Positions 1 through 6,779 are shown, counted from the stretch's first letter. The stretch: 11,377 bases of DNA from Alphaproteobacteria bacterium (GCA_045605805.1 JAZUQR010000023.1:1-11377), one strand, 5' to 3'. The notes: generated from the sequence alone by a model not told the origin. Translations and numbers: made by a program.

Positions 1-177
1 GTGGATGAATTGGATGATGAATTTTGTAAAATTCTCGCAGAAACATCTTTTGAAGGGAATGATTTTAGCCATATCCGTGCATACAACGGGTACAGCGTGC
101 GCAAAGATCTTTTGCCGAACCACGATTGTGGTCCGACAAAATGGTGGGATTATAGAAAACGTCGCTTCCTTGACTAA
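1..177 (+). CDS. 3' end of a CDS entering from the left edge; unknown function
   Basis: Frame 1 is open from base 1 to TAA at 175-177 (VDELDDEFCKILAETSFEGNDFSHIRAYNGYSVRKDLLPNHDCGPTKWWDYRKRRFLD*). Composition is protein-like. Not in the ORF track. Confidence 0.65.
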   Translation: MDELDDEFCKILAETSFEGNDFSHIRAYNGYSVRKDLLPNHDCGPTKWWDYRKRRFLD

Positions 178-178
178 A

Positions 179-322
179 TTATTCCCAAAAACCGTAGTTT
201 TCTTTCCTCTGCATTTCACGTTCAGCATCATCATACAATTTTTCAATAGCCTTATATCTTCTGTCTTTCATATTTTCTCTATGGCTTTGTTTATGGGCCT
301 CTGTATAGTCTCTTTGTTTCAT
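179..322 (-). pseudogene. 47-aa hydrophilic ORF, probably a C-terminal gene remnant
   Basis: MKQRDYTEAHKQSHRENMKDRRYKAIEKLYDDAEREMQRKENYGFWE*. The frame is open upstream into the T-run ending the 331-681 gene, there is no clear RBS, and the stop abuts the convergent stop at 175-177. Confidence 0.4.
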
Positions 323-330
323 GCCATCAT

Positions 331-681
331 CTAAAAAAAACAATCAGTGCTGTAAAATCCCCAAACCTCACAAACAACTATAATGGAGAAACATAATAAC
401 AACCACAACAGAAAGTATATAAAACTATATAGCAAAATCTTTAATTTTCTCTTGATATCACCATATAATACATTTTTCCAAGAACTCTTTACAAACAATC
501 CTGTTAGTAAGGCAAAAGATACTTGTGCAACTGTCCATATATAGATATCTATATTTAATTTATCGGGTGGTAAACAACCAGTTATAATAGAAGTTCCTAA
601 AGCCTTTAATTCTACATAATAAAATATCCCCCATCCGAGGAAAAACAAAACACTTAAAAGAATGCTGAAAATTTTTTTCAT
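331..681 (-). CDS. 3-TM membrane protein, putative immunity protein (family A, copy 2)
   Basis: RBS AAGGA before ATG and three hydrophobic segments. Clear paralog of 1165-1521 (shared LSVLFFLGWGIFY, GC, IW...Q, LFVK, KLKIL, C-terminal CF). The immunity role is inferred from position. Confidence 0.8.
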   Translation of the reverse strand: MKKIFSILLSVLFFLGWGIFYYVELKALGTSIITGCLPPDKLNIDIYIWTVAQVSFALLTGLFVKSSWKNVLYGDIKRKLKILLYSFIYFLLWLLLCFSIIVVCEVWGFYSTDCFF

Positions 682-715
682 TTTAATTCCTTTGACTCAT
701 GCAAGGGAGCTCTCC

Positions 716-1060
716 TCAACGAAACAAATGTTTGATCCATATTTCTATCGGATATTTAAAAATCCATAGTAGATAACATAACATTAAAATAGCAATTCTT
801 CCAAAGTGCTTTCTGTGGTATTTTAAAACACAACACAAGCAAACGAGACAGATGATTGCATCTAAAAAAGCACGTAGACCGTAATATATTGGCGATTTAT
901 AATACCACCATTCACTAAAAGATTCACTTCCCCAATGCTCGAACGGGTGAACAAAAATCATATCCACTGCGTCTTCTAAATATAACAATTCAAAAAAACA
1001 CAAAATGATTATAAATAAAATAATTGTACTTTTTTTTAACATGACGTTTATGTTTTTCAT
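716..1060 (-). CDS. 3-TM membrane protein, putative immunity protein (family B)
   Basis: RBS GAGG and its own promoter at 1082-1110. Three hydrophobic segments with an aromatic loop (WGSE..WWYYKSP.YY). No evident similarity to family A. Confidence 0.8.
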   Translation of the reverse strand: MKNINVMLKKSTIILFIIILCFFELLYLEDAVDMIFVHPFEHWGSESFSEWWYYKSPIYYGLRAFLDAIICLVCLCCVLKYHRKHFGRIAILMLCYLLWIFKYPIEIWIKHLFR

Positions 1061-1081
1061 GGGATACCTCTTCTATATCAG

Positions 1082-1110
1082 ATTATGGTCTACATTTACT
1101 CAACTGTCAA
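1082..1110 (-). promoter_or_regulatory. sigma70-type promoter for 716-1060
   Basis: TTGACA (1110-1105), 17-nt spacer, CATAAT (1087-1082). Confidence 0.75.
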
Positions 1111-1169
1111 TATTCACACCAATCTGGGTATTTTACAATTAAGTCCATGTCTTCGCCACGAGAATCAAA
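1107..1169 (-). pseudogene. Orphan C-terminal tip of a paralogous Tlde1-like toxin
   Basis: FDSRGEDMDLIVKYPDWCEY* versus the toxin end FESHEEDIELIVKYPDWF*. 1118-1170 matches 1577-1629 at 44/53 nt, and 7 of the 9 differences are at third codon positions. Confidence 0.85.
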
Positions 1170-1521
1170 AACACTCAATGTGTGAAATTCTAAACTGAAT
1201 TGATAACAGCACAATTCCAAAATACAATAATATCCATACAGTAGAAAAGACAAAACTGAAGAATAAAATTTTTAATTTGAATAAAATGGAAGAATTGCAC
1301 ATCTTGCGAATCCATTTTTTTACAAATAACAACGAGATTAAAATAAAAAGAACTTGACTGATAAACCACAGCCAAATATTCATGGGGATGCCACCTTTTC
1401 CATCCGTAAAAAAACAACCATTTTTTAATACCCTCAATAGGCAAAAGAACTCTAACACATAAAATATGCCCCAGCCAAGAAAAAACAAAACACTTAGAAA
1501 AATATTCAATACTTTTTTCAT
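1165..1521 (-). CDS. 3-TM membrane protein, putative cognate immunity protein (family A, copy 1)
   Basis: RBS GAGGA. Lies directly downstream of the toxin gene and is a paralog of 331-681. Confidence 0.8.
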   Translation of the reverse strand: MKKVLNIFLSVLFFLGWGIFYVLEFFCLLRVLKNGCFFTDGKGGIPMNIWLWFISQVLFILISLLFVKKWIRKMCNSSILFKLKILFFSFVFSTVWILLYFGIVLLSIQFRISHIECF

Positions 1522-1542
1522 TTTAATTCCTCTGACAGGGGC

Positions 1543-1571
1543 AATATACTATATTTGCTTCAAAGTGTCAA
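1543..1571 (-). promoter_or_regulatory. sigma70-type promoter for 1165-1521
   Basis: TTGACA (1571-1566) immediately after the toxin stop, 17-nt spacer, TATATT (1548-1543). Confidence 0.75.
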
Positions 1572-2237
1572 TCAAAACCAATCTGGGTATTTAACAATTA
1601 ACTCTATATCTTCTTCGTGAGATTCAAAATAACTAATAAAATTATCCATACCTTCTGCTAGGTCAATACAGCCTTTTGATCCCATATCTACTCCACCATG
1701 AATAGATAGATTTGTGCGCCCTTGAGTATTTGTTTTCTTATCTGGTTCTAACCAAATTCTATCATTGCCCCATGAAATGTTACCGCCTGGTCATTTCCCT
1801 AAGGGATAATTTATATGTTTTGTTAGCCCTCCAACATAACTTATTATTTGATCGTCCCAAGATAAATCATCAAATTTTTGATGATTTTTTTGTCTGACAT
1901 GCCATTTACTCTCTGGGATAGGTCCAGCACCAGACACCCCCATATATTTCCTACTTTGAAAATTCTCCTTTCCAGACATAGCAGGCCATTCCTTTACTTT
2001 TTGACCGTTTTCATACCACATCAGTTTTTGTCCATCAAATAATAAATAGGTCTTACCCTTATTTTCTTCCTCTATTGGTTCGGCCCAACAGCGACAATTA
2101 GGGGCTTCGCCTGGATTACCTCCTTCTGGTGGGTTATCAAAGTCAAATATTTGTCCGTTTCGGGCGGCATGTTCGGAACGCACTTTACTATCACCCATTG
2201 TGTGCCATATATATTTTGTCATTTTCTTTCCTTTCAT
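1572..2237 (-). pseudogene. Minimal MuF (gpF minor head) domain fused to a DUF2778/Tlde1-like L,D-transpeptidase-fold domain; one internal TGA at 1791-1793
   Basis: N-terminal YIWHTMGDSKVRSEH...PGEAPNCRCWAEP is the MuF C-terminal motif. It is followed by LLFDG...AMSG...GPIPE. The frame continues past the TGA as PGGNISWGNDRIWLEPDKKTNTQGRTNLSIHGGVDMGSKGCIDLAEG...KYPDWF*, with His and SxGC catalytic-type residues. Likely start is the ATG at 2222 (RBS AAGGA). Confidence 0.8.
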
Positions 2238-2242
2238 TTAAT

Positions 2243-2307
2243 AAAAAAAGCCCGCAAGGGTCATTCCTTACAGGCAACAAAAAACAGGGCATAGTTTTCC
2301 CTGTTAA
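2243..2307 (-). promoter_or_regulatory. Double-hairpin leader (two terminator-like stems), copy 1
   Basis: AACAGGG-N9-CCCTGTT followed by Ts, then GCCTGTAAGG-AATGAC-CCTTGCGGGC followed by T7. Lies between the promoter and RBS of the toxin gene. Repeated at 6718-6772. Confidence 0.65.
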
Positions 2308-2316
2308 CCGTTTGAG

Positions 2317-2344
2317 AGTATAGCATAAATCCACAAAAAATCAA
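2317..2344 (-). promoter_or_regulatory. Promoter for the MuF-Tlde1 gene
   Basis: TTGATT, 16-nt spacer, TATACT with an extended -10 TGn. Confidence 0.55.
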
Positions 2345-2558
2345 GGATTATTTTCCTATTCTATCAGTTTGAAGTCAATTCTGAAGCCGATGAACATGAC
2401 AAAACTGTACCTTTACCTATCCATCTGAACCAAAACTAAAGTTCCCCAGAGGGGTTTTGTTATAATAAAGTTTGTAGCCACCTTTTGGCAAGTGGGCGTT
2501 TTGAAGATCGACGTTTTGTCAGAATGTACAGTATTTAGATGCAATTTCTTATTAAAAT

Positions 2559-3838: not shown

Positions 3839-3912
3839 ATGGTACTATATTTATTCTCAATTGTCAAGAAACAAGAAATTGATTGACGTCTAAAACTAGT
3901 ATTGTATATATT
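3839..3912. promoter_or_regulatory. Divergent sigma70-type promoters
   Basis: Minus strand: TTGACA (3867-3862)-N17-TACCAT. Plus strand: TTGACG (3883-3888)-N18-TATATT. Confidence 0.5.
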
Positions 3913-3931
3913 AAAGGAGAAGGAGATAAAC

Positions 3932-4405
3932 ATGGTAGACAATATTTTTAGATATTCTATGAAAGCTATTATCATTAAAGATGGAAAATTTTTGGTTGAG
4001 CAAGTAGACCAAGGGCGTGGTCAATTTTATAAACTTCCAGGAGGTGGTCATCATTTTGGAGAAACTATTCACCAAGCGCTACTTAGAGAACTCAAAGAAG
4101 AGTTAGGGCTAGATGCCAATATTGGAACTTTGTTATTTATACGTGATTACATAGCCAAGAATCACGACATGGAGTTTGATGATCCCAATTTTCAGCAAAC
4201 GGAGTTGATGTTCCTTTGTGATGTAAAAGATTTCTCAAACCTTGGTAAAGGATTAGAACCGGATAAGAACCAAATTATTTGTTGGAAAACAGCAGAAGAA
4301 TTGGGACGAATTAAATTCCTTCCCCAAAAGCTCGTTCCTTACTTGAAAGATTTGAAGAAGCTACAAGAACAAAAAGAAACAATTTATTTGGGTGATATTA
4401 ACTAA
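3932..4405 (+). CDS. Nudix hydrolase
   Basis: Nudix box GGGHHFGETIHQALLRELKEELG. ATG 3932 follows the RBS AAGGAGAAGGAG. Confidence 0.92.
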   Translation: MVDNIFRYSMKAIIIKDGKFLVEQVDQGRGQFYKLPGGGHHFGETIHQALLRELKEELGLDANIGTLLFIRDYIAKNHDMEFDDPNFQQTELMFLCDVKDFSNLGKGLEPDKNQIICWKTAEELGRIKFLPQKLVPYLKDLKKLQEQKETIYLGDIN

Positions 4406-4488
4406 TATCACTTCTCGGTTTTGTATTTGTCTTTTATTGAATTTTTTTTCAGAAGTATTTTTATAATGCTATACACAAAGAAAAGCAA

Positions 4489-4896
4489 ATGAGCAAAATT
4501 AAACTATCTGTTTGTGGTGTCATTGTACATCAGAACAAGTTTCTAATCGTCAAACGATCTGAAACAGATGACTTTTTGCCAAATTGTTGGGAATTCCCTG
4601 GTGGTAGTGTAGAAGATGGTGAAACAATATCCGAAGCCTTGAAACGAGAAATAAAAGAAGAAATAGGTTTAGATATATCAAATGAACATCCCCAACTAAT
4701 TGGTATTTCTGAAGAGTTTATGAATGAAGAAAAAACAGAAAGATATTTACAATTAAATTATAAAATTGTTATGGACACAGAACCCAACATGACACTCAGT
4801 TCCGAACATGTCACTTTTGATTGGGCGGACACGACCGATTCCAGATTGGACGATTTTCTAAAAGAGATTATTAGGCAAGTGGAGACAGACAAATGA
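4489..4896 (+). CDS. Nudix hydrolase (MutT-like)
   Basis: WEFPGGSVEDGETISEALKREIKEEIG and the LSSEH motif. Confidence 0.92.
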   Translation: MSKIKLSVCGVIVHQNKFLIVKRSETDDFLPNCWEFPGGSVEDGETISEALKREIKEEIGLDISNEHPQLIGISEEFMNEEKTERYLQLNYKIVMDTEPNMTLSSEHVTFDWADTTDSRLDDFLKEIIRQVETDK

Positions 4897-5363
4897 GTTT
4901 ACCGACTTGCTATCTTATTTGTGGGTTTTTAGGGGCGGGTAAAACAACTTATTCCCAAAAACTCTCCAAAGAAACGGGAGCCATCCATCTGAATCCTGAT
5001 GAATGGTGTATGAAATTGTTTTCTAAAAAAGAGTACGAGCAAAATTGGAACAAATGTTTTTCTGAAACTATAGAGTATTTGTGGAAAAAAGCAGAAGAAT
5101 ATGCCAAAAATGGAAAATCTGTTATTTTTGACATGGGATTTTGGACAAAACAAAGTCGGGATGAAGCAACACAAAGGGCAAAGGATTTGGGGTTCAATTC
5201 TGTTATACATTTTTTGACTGTGCCAGATGAGATTTTGAAACAACGTATTTCAAAACGAAGTGGGACTATAGCAGATTATAATTTACAGCATTTTAATGCA
5301 CTTAAACAGCAATTTGAAGAACCCAGCACAGATGAAGAATATGTTTTGATAAAAAATTACTAA
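4893..5363 (+). CDS. P-loop kinase (AAA_33-like)
   Basis: Walker A GFLGAGKTT, VIFD, R...R lid, FEEP. ATGA overlap with the upstream gene. Confidence 0.88.
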   Translation: MSLPTCYLICGFLGAGKTTYSQKLSKETGAIHLNPDEWCMKLFSKKEYEQNWNKCFSETIEYLWKKAEEYAKNGKSVIFDMGFWTKQSRDEATQRAKDLGFNSVIHFLTVPDEILKQRISKRSGTIADYNLQHFNALKQQFEEPSTDEEYVLIKNY

Positions 5364-6288: not shown

Positions 6289-6358
6289 AAATACACCTTT
6301 TAGTTGTATTTTTAGGGGGTTGTTATTTTTTAGTTGCATTTTAGCAAAAATACAGCTA
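6289..6358. promoter_or_regulatory. Operator-like direct and inverted repeats (TAGTTGTATTTT)
   Basis: Copies at 6301-6312 and 6331-6342, an inverted copy at 6347-6358 and a partial inverted copy at 6289-6295, all upstream of the RHH gene. Confidence 0.45.
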
Positions 6359-6399
6359 TAAGTATAGGTGAAAAAACTTTAACAAAGGATTGAAAAAAA

Positions 6400-6639
6400 A
6401 TGTTGATATGCAAAAATGTAATTGTGAACGGCAGACGCACCAGCATGAGATTAGACAAAGAAACTTGGCTCTCGCTGAGCGAAATCTGCAAAACAGAAAA
6501 TACAAACCTACACGCTCTGTGTTCAAAAATTGAAAAAAGCAAAGGCGAATGCGGCCTGTCCGGTGCGGTCAGAAGTTTTGTCCTTACCTACCTGCGCCAA
6601 CTGTTGCAACAATACCGCCAACACAGCCCCCGCATTTAA
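6400..6639 (+). CDS. Ribbon-helix-helix protein (RHH_4 type)
   Basis: KNVIVNGRRTSMRLD..W..L.EIC...LSGAVR.FVL.Y is the typical alphaproteobacterial RHH_4 signature. RBS AAGGA. Confidence 0.9.
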   Translation: MLICKNVIVNGRRTSMRLDKETWLSLSEICKTENTNLHALCSKIEKSKGECGLSGAVRSFVLTYLRQLLQQYRQHSPRI

Positions 6640-6645
6640 CTAAGC

Positions 6646-6676
6646 CCTTGCTCGGCAAAAGCCAGCAAGGATTTTT
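6646..6676 (+). terminator. Probable intrinsic terminator of the RHH gene
   Basis: CCTTGCT(C)GGC-AAAA-GCCAGCAAGG followed by ATTTTT, just after the stop. Confidence 0.6.
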
Positions 6677-6717
6677 GGGGGAAATCATTTGTGAATTTAG
6701 GTTCTGCCCTCTGGTGT

Positions 6718-6779
6718 TTAGCAGGGCTAACTATACCCTGTTTTTTATTGCCCGTATGGAATGACCCTTGCGTTTTTTT
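6718..6779 (+). repeat. Double-hairpin leader, copy 2 (inverted relative to copy 1)
   Basis: 6718-6772 matches the reverse complement of 2253-2307 at 48/55 nt without gaps, and is followed by T7. Confidence 0.85.

Follow-up and report, generated by a model that had tools for sequence, protein, structure and literature searches.

The stretch of DNA analyzed here (the window) is the whole of contig C23, 11,377 bp in length, from a 1.21-Mb genome assembly with 31 contigs and 98.85% completeness (GCA_045605805.1); the host is a small-genome gut alphaproteobacterium. Near one end, the minus strand of the window carries a gene for a putative peptidoglycan-targeting toxin that joins a short piece of the phage protein MuF (mini-MuF) to a Tlde1-like domain and is broken by an in-frame TGA. 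Behind it lie three small genes for proteins with three predicted transmembrane (TM) segments, here named imm1, imm2 and imm3, together with two toxin remnants and the end of a lipoprotein gene (Table 1). An earlier note, made from the window alone, had already placed three small 3-TM genes and coding remnants behind the toxin, and both kinds of feature are borne out at the positions given in the table. The GC content of C23 is 33.5%, against 35-45% in the remaining 30 contigs (at least 39.5% in 25 of these). Mis-binning, which the low GC might suggest, was rejected, and we keep the contig as genuine, because its two ends each overlap a neighboring contig by 141 nt (C27 at one end and C4 at the other) and other genomes of the genus have related cassettes.

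Table 1. Features of the toxin-immunity locus (positions in the window)
Feature	Position	Strand	Remarks
Sigma-70-like promoter	2317..2344	-	TTGATT, 16 nt, TATACT, with TG before the -10; kept upstream of mini-MuF genes elsewhere
5' leader with two terminator-like hairpins	2243..2303	-	Terminator scan and RNAalifold
Toxin gene, mini-MuF plus Tlde1-like domain	1572..2222	-	216 codons plus stop; broken in this strain
Mini-MuF module, residues 1-52	2067..2222	-	Pfam PF04233 positions 60-110 of 112; alignment; AlphaFold model
Tlde1/YkuD-fold toxin domain, residues 57-216	1575..2054	-	His175 and Cys185 in IHGG..GSKGC; model, Foldseek, profile
In-frame TGA at a Trp codon (break)	1791..1793	-	Codon 144 from 2222, 149 from 2237
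Promoter-like site for imm1	1543..1571	-	TTGACA, 17 nt, TATATT; 11/12 matches
imm1, 118 aa, 3 TM, candidate cognate immunity	1165..1521	-	Cys36 and C-terminal ECF conserved
Displaced 3' end of another Tlde1-type toxin (..GEDMDLIVKYPDW..)	1107..1175	-	Repeat of toxin end
Promoter-like site for imm2	1082..1110	-	TTGACA, 17 nt, CATAAT; 11/12 matches
imm2, 114 aa, 3 TM, candidate immunity for displaced toxin variant	716..1060	-	
imm3, 116 aa, 3 TM, imm1 paralog	331..681	-	40% aa identity; 5' ends 81% DNA identity
Displaced 3' end of mini-MuF-lysozyme toxin	179..343	-	85% over 52 aa to the P0035 C-terminus
3' end of convergent lipoprotein gene	1..177	+	Candidate immunity to lysozyme-type toxin; continues on C27

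The minus-strand open reading frame (ORF) that starts at 2237 runs to the TGA at 1791, after which the frame reopens and continues to a stop at 1574-1572. Read through, 2237..1575 contains the motifs that the earlier note had listed (EEENKGK, GPIP, SWGNDRIWL, GRTNLSIHGG and SKGCID), and its numbering of H180 and C190 from 2237 is correct. The start at 2237 itself is replaced by the ATG at 2222 (MTKY...), because module-bearing homologs open with MT(K)Y and base 2237 differs in all four sequencing runs compared; GGAAAG sits immediately upstream of 2222. Intact homologs in a large protein database are 206-217 aa long with 67-83% identity, the closest (P0002 and P0003) being 217 aa long and 82-83% identical. 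The Pfam family Phage_Mu_F matches the read-through protein with an E value of 5.9e-13 (50 bits; cut-off 29.6), at profile positions 60-110 of 112 only, and the NCBIfam family TIGR01641 matches at positions 54-105 of 109, both matches lying at residues 2-52. Twelve residues of the module (Y4, W6, D11, R15, H18, P31, P32, G35, P37, C43, R44 and C45) are invariant in 107 sequences. An AlphaFold model of the 54-residue module, built from these, has a predicted local distance difference test score (pLDDT) of 92.2. Its fold, a short helix with three strands, aligns with the corresponding part of predicted viral minor capsid proteins at TM-scores of 0.83-0.92. Within the PDB, mini-MuF has no match by sequence profile and none by fold (best E value 5.9).

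The remainder of the protein resembles Tlde1. In the AlphaFold model of the toxin, built from 16 sequences, pLDDT in the toxin domain is about 77-95 in 15 of 16 ten-residue blocks and 57 in the remaining block. Foldseek ranks three Tlde1a structures first in the PDB (7uo8, 7uma and 7uo3; E values 3.2e-7 to 1.4e-6, target-TM 0.57-0.60), followed by Bd1075, LdtA, YcbB and YkuD, and a sequence profile compared with the PDB also finds Tlde1a first (E value 2e-4). His175 and Cys185 are invariant in the 16-sequence alignment and are aligned with H121 and C131 of Tlde1a. Several intact homologs carry precomputed annotations of Phage_Mu_F with Tlde1_dom or YkuD (Tlde1_dom in P0003, P0004, P0006 and P0007), and a relative within the genus (genome G001, locus L239) reaches 42.7 bits with Tlde1_dom, against a cut-off of 30.1, and passes the YkuD cut-off as well. 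Pfam, the AlphaFold model, the PDB profile and Foldseek thus agree with the mini-MuF and Tlde1/YkuD-fold calls of the earlier note.

The TGA aligns with a Trp that is present in all 16 aligned sequences. In each of three metagenomic DNA runs from three studies (X1, X4 and X8), every covering contig has C at plus-strand base 1791, which gives TGG. The best run contains 0.42 of the sampled words, and because the share is no higher than that, we take the runs to represent relatives rather than this strain. Recoding of TGA (genetic code 4 or 25) was rejected: TGA ends 159 of the 738 long ORFs in the genome and is absent from the window's 686-aa and 712-aa ORFs, and is thus an ordinary stop. It follows that this copy is either a recent nonsense allele or an assembly error, and we hold a recent, strain-specific nonsense allele to be probable. 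The opposite view, that the gene is intact in the organism and the locus live, the TGA being an assembly or consensus error or being read through, can point to the single base that separates TGA from the TGG of all three other DNA runs and to the rest of the frame, which is open and 82-83% identical to intact homologs; since TGA is a normal stop in the genome and is missing from the two long ORFs of the window cited above, we regard it as improbable. With the TGG-to-TGA change the toxin is dead in this strain. Relatives in other samples carry the intact allele.

Each of the three small proteins has three hydrophobic 19-residue segments (Kyte-Doolittle mean 1.8-2.7). In the family of imm1 and imm3, FFLGW and FY residues are invariant, the first outside loop has a Cys, and a CF is shared at the C-terminus. 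The imm2 protein is unrelated to these in sequence and belongs to a family of five proteins in the large database, of which neither the other fetched loci nor the rest of the genome yielded a member. Comparison of the genes downstream of the toxin with Pfam and NCBIfam gave no family with a meaningful score, and the ESM Atlas look-alikes of imm1 and imm2 are unnamed small proteins only, with recognition values below the useful range. When the toxin domain was modeled in complex with the imm1 family, no answer resulted (score 0.00, mark 0.32), which is uninformative either way.

Two of the intervening stretches are toxin ends. After imm1, positions 1090-1175 repeat the toxin 3' end at 1549-1634 (86 nt) with 72% identity. 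Past imm3 come the last 54 codons of a different toxin, which is intact on contig C2 (P0035); it has the same mini-MuF head followed by a phage-lysozyme-like domain, and a convergent lipoprotein gene lies downstream of it. The lipoprotein gene at base 1 of C23 is carried across the overlap with the start of C27, where a 164-aa ORF begins with a lipobox-like LTAC. Homologs of this lipoprotein are convergent to genes of the mini-MuF-lysozyme type or for other cell-wall hydrolases in 11 loci, and further toxin remnants and lipoprotein genes are present on C31 and C21. We also note that C31:1-2400 looks like another immunity island: it has the 3' remnant of a lysozyme toxin, a lysozyme-like ORF that lacks mini-MuF (857-1474) and three genes of the lipoprotein family put forward here as candidate immunity.

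Members of the imm1 family were found in seven loci: the window, L017 and L019, and one each in genomes G001, G002, G013 and G018. In five of these (the window, L017, L019, L239 and L240) the gene directly follows a Tlde1-like toxin. The five toxins match the toxin profile with E values of 1e-55 to 1e-83, and their N-termini are of three types (mini-MuF, no extension, or a different, His/Cys-rich module). As for the other two loci, the G002 copy lies at a contig end and the G018 copy is broken and sits beside a lysozyme-type toxin. Because of this gene order the imm1/imm3 family is a good candidate for immunity to Tlde1-like toxins. More generally, the downstream partner co-varies with the tail, a lipoprotein accompanying lysozyme and a 3-TM protein accompanying Tlde1. 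The earlier note had offered all three membrane genes as candidate immunity genes associated with toxins; the association holds for imm1 and imm3 but so far not for imm2.

The His/Cys-rich module constitutes a second toxin head in the genus. It is about 95 aa long (..HVPAHTR.GHPV.AYDRLCGQKH..), was seen at L239:1636-2394 (minus strand) and L238:72-1019 (plus strand) in genomes G001 and G018, and carries the same Tlde1-like and lysozyme-like tails with the same immunity families, so the genus uses at least two alternative toxin heads.

The part of the locus that precedes the toxin domain is remarkably constant. The first hairpin of the leader (CAGGG..CCCTG) lies at 2303-2285, with a T run after it; the second occupies 2275-2250, with 10 pairs, and is followed by a T run at 2249-2243. 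RNAalifold on six sequences gives 28 pairs, with compensatory changes in three pairs of hairpin 2, and a comparison of the leader with Rfam gave no match, bar one chance-level match elsewhere. Eight upstream regions (those of the window, C2, L017 and five loci from relatives) are near-invariant from the -35 to the start codon, and across these eight loci, which come from different genomes and genomic places, the DNA remains near-identical from the -35 box as far as codon 50, whether the tail is a lysozyme or Tlde1. The leader is a candidate attenuator that would gate toxin expression, and the constant head may serve as a recombination handle for tail exchange. This promoter and hairpin leader precede the mini-MuF genes in L005, L017, L059, L060, L062, L222 and L223. 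An RNA run (X20) has a 201-nt contig over 2071-2271, from which we draw nothing about transcription, because the region is common to paralogs and contigs cannot show transcription.

The module is widespread. In a survey that used one genome per species and confirmed matches by tblastn, 287 stretches with mini-MuF were found and 80 were kept, about 75 of which have alphaproteobacterial titles by our own count, with many ruminant-gut and marine metagenome-assembled genomes (MAGs) among them. In bacterial genomes 0-300 residues precede the motif and mostly 90-440 residues follow it. All 78 mini-MuF proteins scanned for tail domains match Phage_Mu_F, and their tails span at least 11 Pfam toxin or hydrolase families: PG_binding_1 occurs in 14 of the 78 proteins, VgrG3-like_C, CdiA RNase A, YkuD, GH46, Pesticin and Phage_lysozyme in two proteins each, and Colicin_E5, Colicin-DNase, WHH and Tlde1_dom in one each. 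Across Alphaproteobacteria, then, the module is fused to lysozymes, chitosanase-like domains, nucleases and peptidoglycan-binding domains, and the C2 lysozyme toxin is a second fusion within this genome, so that the search for other mini-MuF fusions proposed in the earlier note was fruitful.

These genes mostly stand apart from phage genes. None were found in the window. In L017 the genes before the intact ortholog are recN-like and BamD-like by our own reading of translations, in keeping with the stand-alone cassette that had been proposed. When the ORFs lying no more than 7 kb from 77 bacterial mini-MuF genes (957 ORFs, annotated in part) were searched with profiles built from the phage genes of one phage lineage, portal, scaffold, cement, capsid and sheath-like profiles matched none and the terminase profile gave two weak matches; clustering of the neighbors yielded candidate immunity families and housekeeping genes only. 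The exceptions are mini-MuF toxins inside the phage contigs L138 and L187. In phage contigs the motif usually ends an ordinary MuF protein of about 270 aa (38 of 43 regular-expression matches), after 193-285 residues of MuF body, and in 33 of 40 such phage loci a Phage_portal_3 portal lies directly upstream, with terminase, DUF2213, cement and capsid genes.

Two further classes of mini-MuF protein deserve mention. Those of L075, L082, L094, L098, L101, L127, L128, L138, L187 and L195 share an N-terminal part of about 35 aa with Y(R/Q)KAFxxYLR(K/R)GT and a common tail of about 200 aa; in the viral contigs L138 and L187 the gene comes after head-tail-joining-like ORFs, and in L187 also before a tape-measure-like ORF (our own reading). 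The other class, in Rhodospirillales-type MAGs (L058-L095), has PG_binding_1, a GDT(V/I)LAH..NP.TGL.EF segment, mini-MuF and a coiled-coil tail of about 140 aa, often with a convergent neighbor of about 340 aa, which was found in 10 loci. A T7-type portal occurs in 14 of 16 genomes of this class, which was assigned by eye, and this may simply reflect common ancestry.

Taken together, the locus is, in our judgment, probably a chromosomal polymorphic toxin-immunity island with a constant head, an exchangeable tail, displaced cassettes, a dead toxin and retained immunity. The layout is that of polymorphic toxins: a conserved N-terminal part is joined to many unrelated tails, the downstream gene co-varies with the tail, and orphan toxin ends (1107-1175 and 179-343) stand with the extra genes imm2 and imm3. 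The 160-aa Tlde1-like tail followed by the 118-aa imm1 also has the form used to recognize MuF toxins, a tail of at least 100 aa and then a small ORF. In the mechanism that we propose, the toxin would consist of a constant head (promoter, hairpin leader and 50-residue mini-MuF) and an exchangeable C-terminal toxin. By analogy with Tlde1a, once in the periplasm of a rival the enzyme may cleave off or swap the D-amino acid of peptidoglycan stem peptides. New toxin-immunity cassettes would displace older ones via recombination in the constant head, and such displacement could have left the two orphan toxin 3' ends and the row of putative immunity genes, namely three inner-membrane 3-TM proteins, with promoters of their own, and one lipoprotein. 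Export would most likely rely on mini-MuF as a trafficking domain. As the toxin is dead and the immunity genes are open, the strain is probably immune but unarmed.

Among known systems, the CdiA-CT/Rhs arrays (PMC3482391) share with this locus a constant 5' part, exchangeable tails and displaced orphan tails with stacked immunity genes, and immunity genes kept without a live toxin are a further trait in common. Unlike them, the constant part here is very small, its promoter and leader taking up about 135 nt and its coding sequence 150 nt, with no repeats, stalk or known secretion partner. The MuF toxins (Zhang et al. 2012; Jamet et al. 2017; Apk2, Bxa) likewise have a MuF-derived N-terminus, a variable toxin and small immunity ORFs. 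As they are described in the relevant passages of PMC3482391, PMC5576092 and PMC11699363, MuF phage toxins contain a complete MuF body and are encoded in the head modules of prophages, by portal and terminase genes. In contrast, the present toxin has only positions 60-110 of 112, at its N-terminus, and belongs to a chromosomal cassette with its own promoter; moreover, the tails found with the module include cell-wall enzymes that act in the periplasm. The words lysozyme, peptidoglycan and DUF2778 are absent from the main text of PMC5576092, its supplementary tables not being covered. For lack of a MuF body and of a head-module context, the protein does not count among the classical MuF phage toxins. 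The literature searched, supplementary tables again not covered, describes no MuF module that is truncated and N-terminal; no paper was found that joins MuF and DUF2778, and those naming both gene transfer agent (GTA) and MuF are, by title and abstract, unrelated.

How such a toxin might leave the cell was considered next to what the genomes offer. By our own reading its N-terminus has no signal peptide. The sheath VipB/TssC (PF05943) of type VI secretion systems (T6SS), the sole T6SS family searched, is present in none of the five mini-MuF genomes compared, which include this one; it was detected in the E. coli control. The earlier note had asked for capsid and portal genes elsewhere in the genome, and there are two kinds, a pair of SPP1-type prophages with full MuF proteins and a T7-like cluster. 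The prophage MuF proteins are encoded at C12:8420-9835 (471 aa) and C16:4592-6028 (478 aa); both have about 215 residues after the MuF domain and may be classical MuF toxins themselves. The T7-like cluster (C22:149-10446, locus L229) comprises 13 genes in about 10 kb, among them genes for an S24 repressor, T7-type portal, scaffold, capsid, tail tube A and B, a small internal virion protein, terminase and a SleB-type hydrolase, and, as we read its ORFs and family matches, replication genes and large core proteins are absent from it. It is syntenic in all six relatives fetched (four genomes of the genus and two other genera of the family), with 33-83% aa identity between genes, although three genes found no match in one of the two genomes from other genera. 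Its T7-type portal occurs as a single copy in 21 of 21 genus genomes, and the cluster looks like a vertically kept, domesticated phage-like (GTA-like) element.

It is conceivable, much as the earlier note supposed, that mini-MuF is a minimal portal- or capsid-docking tag with which the toxin is packed into particles of a phage or GTA-like kind whose genes lie elsewhere, here the two prophages or the genus-wide T7-like cluster, for delivery to neighboring cells. MuF has been proposed as a capsid-targeting domain (PMC3482391, PMC5576092, PMC11699363 and PMC5512222, as far as their relevant passages go). The motif is the conserved core of the virion MuF, which it ends in the 38 of 43 phage matches noted above, mostly next to a Phage_portal_3 portal (33 of 40 loci), and in the model its fold equals that of the virion MuF subdomain. 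Heads are present in the genome, the sheath gene is missing from all five mini-MuF genomes, and the toxins of L138 and L187 lie within phage contigs. Against this, the resident prophage MuF is only 29% identical to mini-MuF over the motif, and genome G015, which is 99% complete, has two mini-MuF genes yet no full MuF and no SPP1, HK97 or Phage_portal_3 portal. We know of no T7-like phage that uses MuF, which also counts against capsid cargo.

The distribution of portals was compared in the five mini-MuF genomes, in 50 mini-MuF genomes elsewhere, in 20 relatives outside the genus and in 21 genus genomes. Phage_portal_3, the type that accompanies the closest phage MuF proteins, was rejected as the partner of the module in the genus, being found in none of the five mini-MuF genomes and in two of 41 relatives. 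The HK97/GTA-type portal and TerL_ATPase are likewise found in none of the five, the SPP1 portal is found among them in this genome only, and four of the five have none of the Phage_portal_3, SPP1 and HK97/GTA portals. The T7-type portal is present in 19 of the 50 mini-MuF genomes elsewhere vs 6 of the 20 non-genus relatives and is therefore not required; within the genus the comparison (portal in 21 of 21, mini-MuF in 4 of 21) is uninformative. Since no head type tracks the module, and head-gene profiles match none of the 957 neighboring ORFs bar the two weak terminase matches, capsid loading stays hypothetical, a loading-tag role of mini-MuF is still conjectural, and delivery of the toxin as capsid cargo is, in our estimate, unlikely. 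A broader form of the idea, that the mini-MuF fold is a self-sufficient capsid-docking module with which chromosomal genes load antibacterial hydrolases and nucleases into particles of their own cell or of infecting phages, one candidate carrier being the 10-kb T7-like cluster kept in every genus genome, we consider doubtful. If true, it would give T6SS-less gut Alphaproteobacteria a capsid-borne route of interbacterial killing.

MuF-peptidoglycan enzyme fusions have also been proposed to help injection (PMC5512222, in the passages concerned with them), and the protein might accordingly be a virion-associated cell-wall enzyme for DNA injection rather than an interbacterial toxin, the membrane genes then being unrelated or holin-like. 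Within the genus, mini-MuF tails are indeed all cell-wall enzymes (lysozyme, VgrG3-like/GH46 and Tlde1), and the T7-like cluster is without large internal core proteins bearing a hydrolase domain. Elsewhere, however, the same module carries colicin-type nucleases and RNases, toxin-specific partners change along with the tail, an immunity array with orphan toxin ends is characteristic of polymorphic toxins, and the loci lie outside particle gene clusters. We find this explanation very improbable.

Several points weigh against the island reading that we prefer. The in-frame TGA could be an assembly error, as the evidence from this strain is the assembly alone. YkuD matches the window protein below threshold (E value 3.7e-4; 21.5 bits vs a cut-off of 23.4), and Tlde1_dom (PF10908) gives no match to it at an E value of 1 or less and none in the genome scan; of the profile and structure check suggested in the earlier note, Phage_Mu_F and the Tlde1 fold thus came out positive and the Tlde1_dom (DUF2778) profile, on the window protein, negative. 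Where Tlde1a has H129 (SHGC), the toxin here has Lys (SKGC), and its relatives have K, R, E, D or A. No toxin linkage of imm2 has been demonstrated outside this window, and no delivery machinery linked to the locus was found. Finally, activity, toxicity and protection are predictions from the sequence and the model.

The likeness to Tlde1 is accordingly one of degree. The Tlde1a catalytic motif is described in PMC9638812 as H121, H129 and C131, with (S/T)-His-Gly-Cys and with H129 in the catalytic pocket. Like the Salmonella T6SS effectors of this family (Tlde1a; PF10908, formerly DUF2778), the toxin has a YkuD-type L,D-transpeptidase fold with the His/Cys spacing kept, lacks a signal peptide and is followed by a protective gene, here a candidate. 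Unlike them, it has a mini-MuF N-terminus, SKGC for SHGC and no accompanying T6SS sheath match, and the window protein lies below the Pfam cut-off. The candidate immunity protein is a 3-TM membrane protein, unlike Tldi1. Tldi1 is a soluble periplasmic protein. The fold and nucleophile are those of Tlde1, the strict Tlde1 motif is not present, and with the change from SHGC to SKGC the chemistry may differ from that of Tlde1a. Because no T6SS was found and the motif is a variant, the protein does not belong with the classical Tlde1 effectors. In the way it works the locus resembles a polymorphic toxin system and the toxin domain resembles Tlde1, and defining features of both the Tlde1 effectors and the MuF phage toxins are lacking.

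To our knowledge, MuF toxins are known as phage head-module genes, and we know of no demonstration of their delivery. What is left of MuF here is one small subdomain, modeled with confidence, on stand-alone chromosomal toxins; if that module suffices for export or capsid loading, it would be the minimal trafficking signal of the MuF route and a handy experimental tag. The locus also contributes a candidate immunity family, embedded in the membrane, for Tlde1-type peptidoglycan toxins and suggests that Tlde1-like enzymes are used outside the T6SS. In practical terms this strain offers nothing out of the ordinary, having a dead toxin and retaining the immunity genes.

Elsewhere in the window, positions 3902-5363 (plus strand) hold two NUDIX genes followed, with a 4-nt overlap, by an AAA_33/Zeta_toxin-like kinase gene (Zeta_toxin E value 3.6e-10), which could form a small conflict module beside the toxin island. 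An RHH_4 gene (6400-6639) and its surroundings (6330-6764) have a near-identical copy at C27:3146-3880, near the junction with C23.

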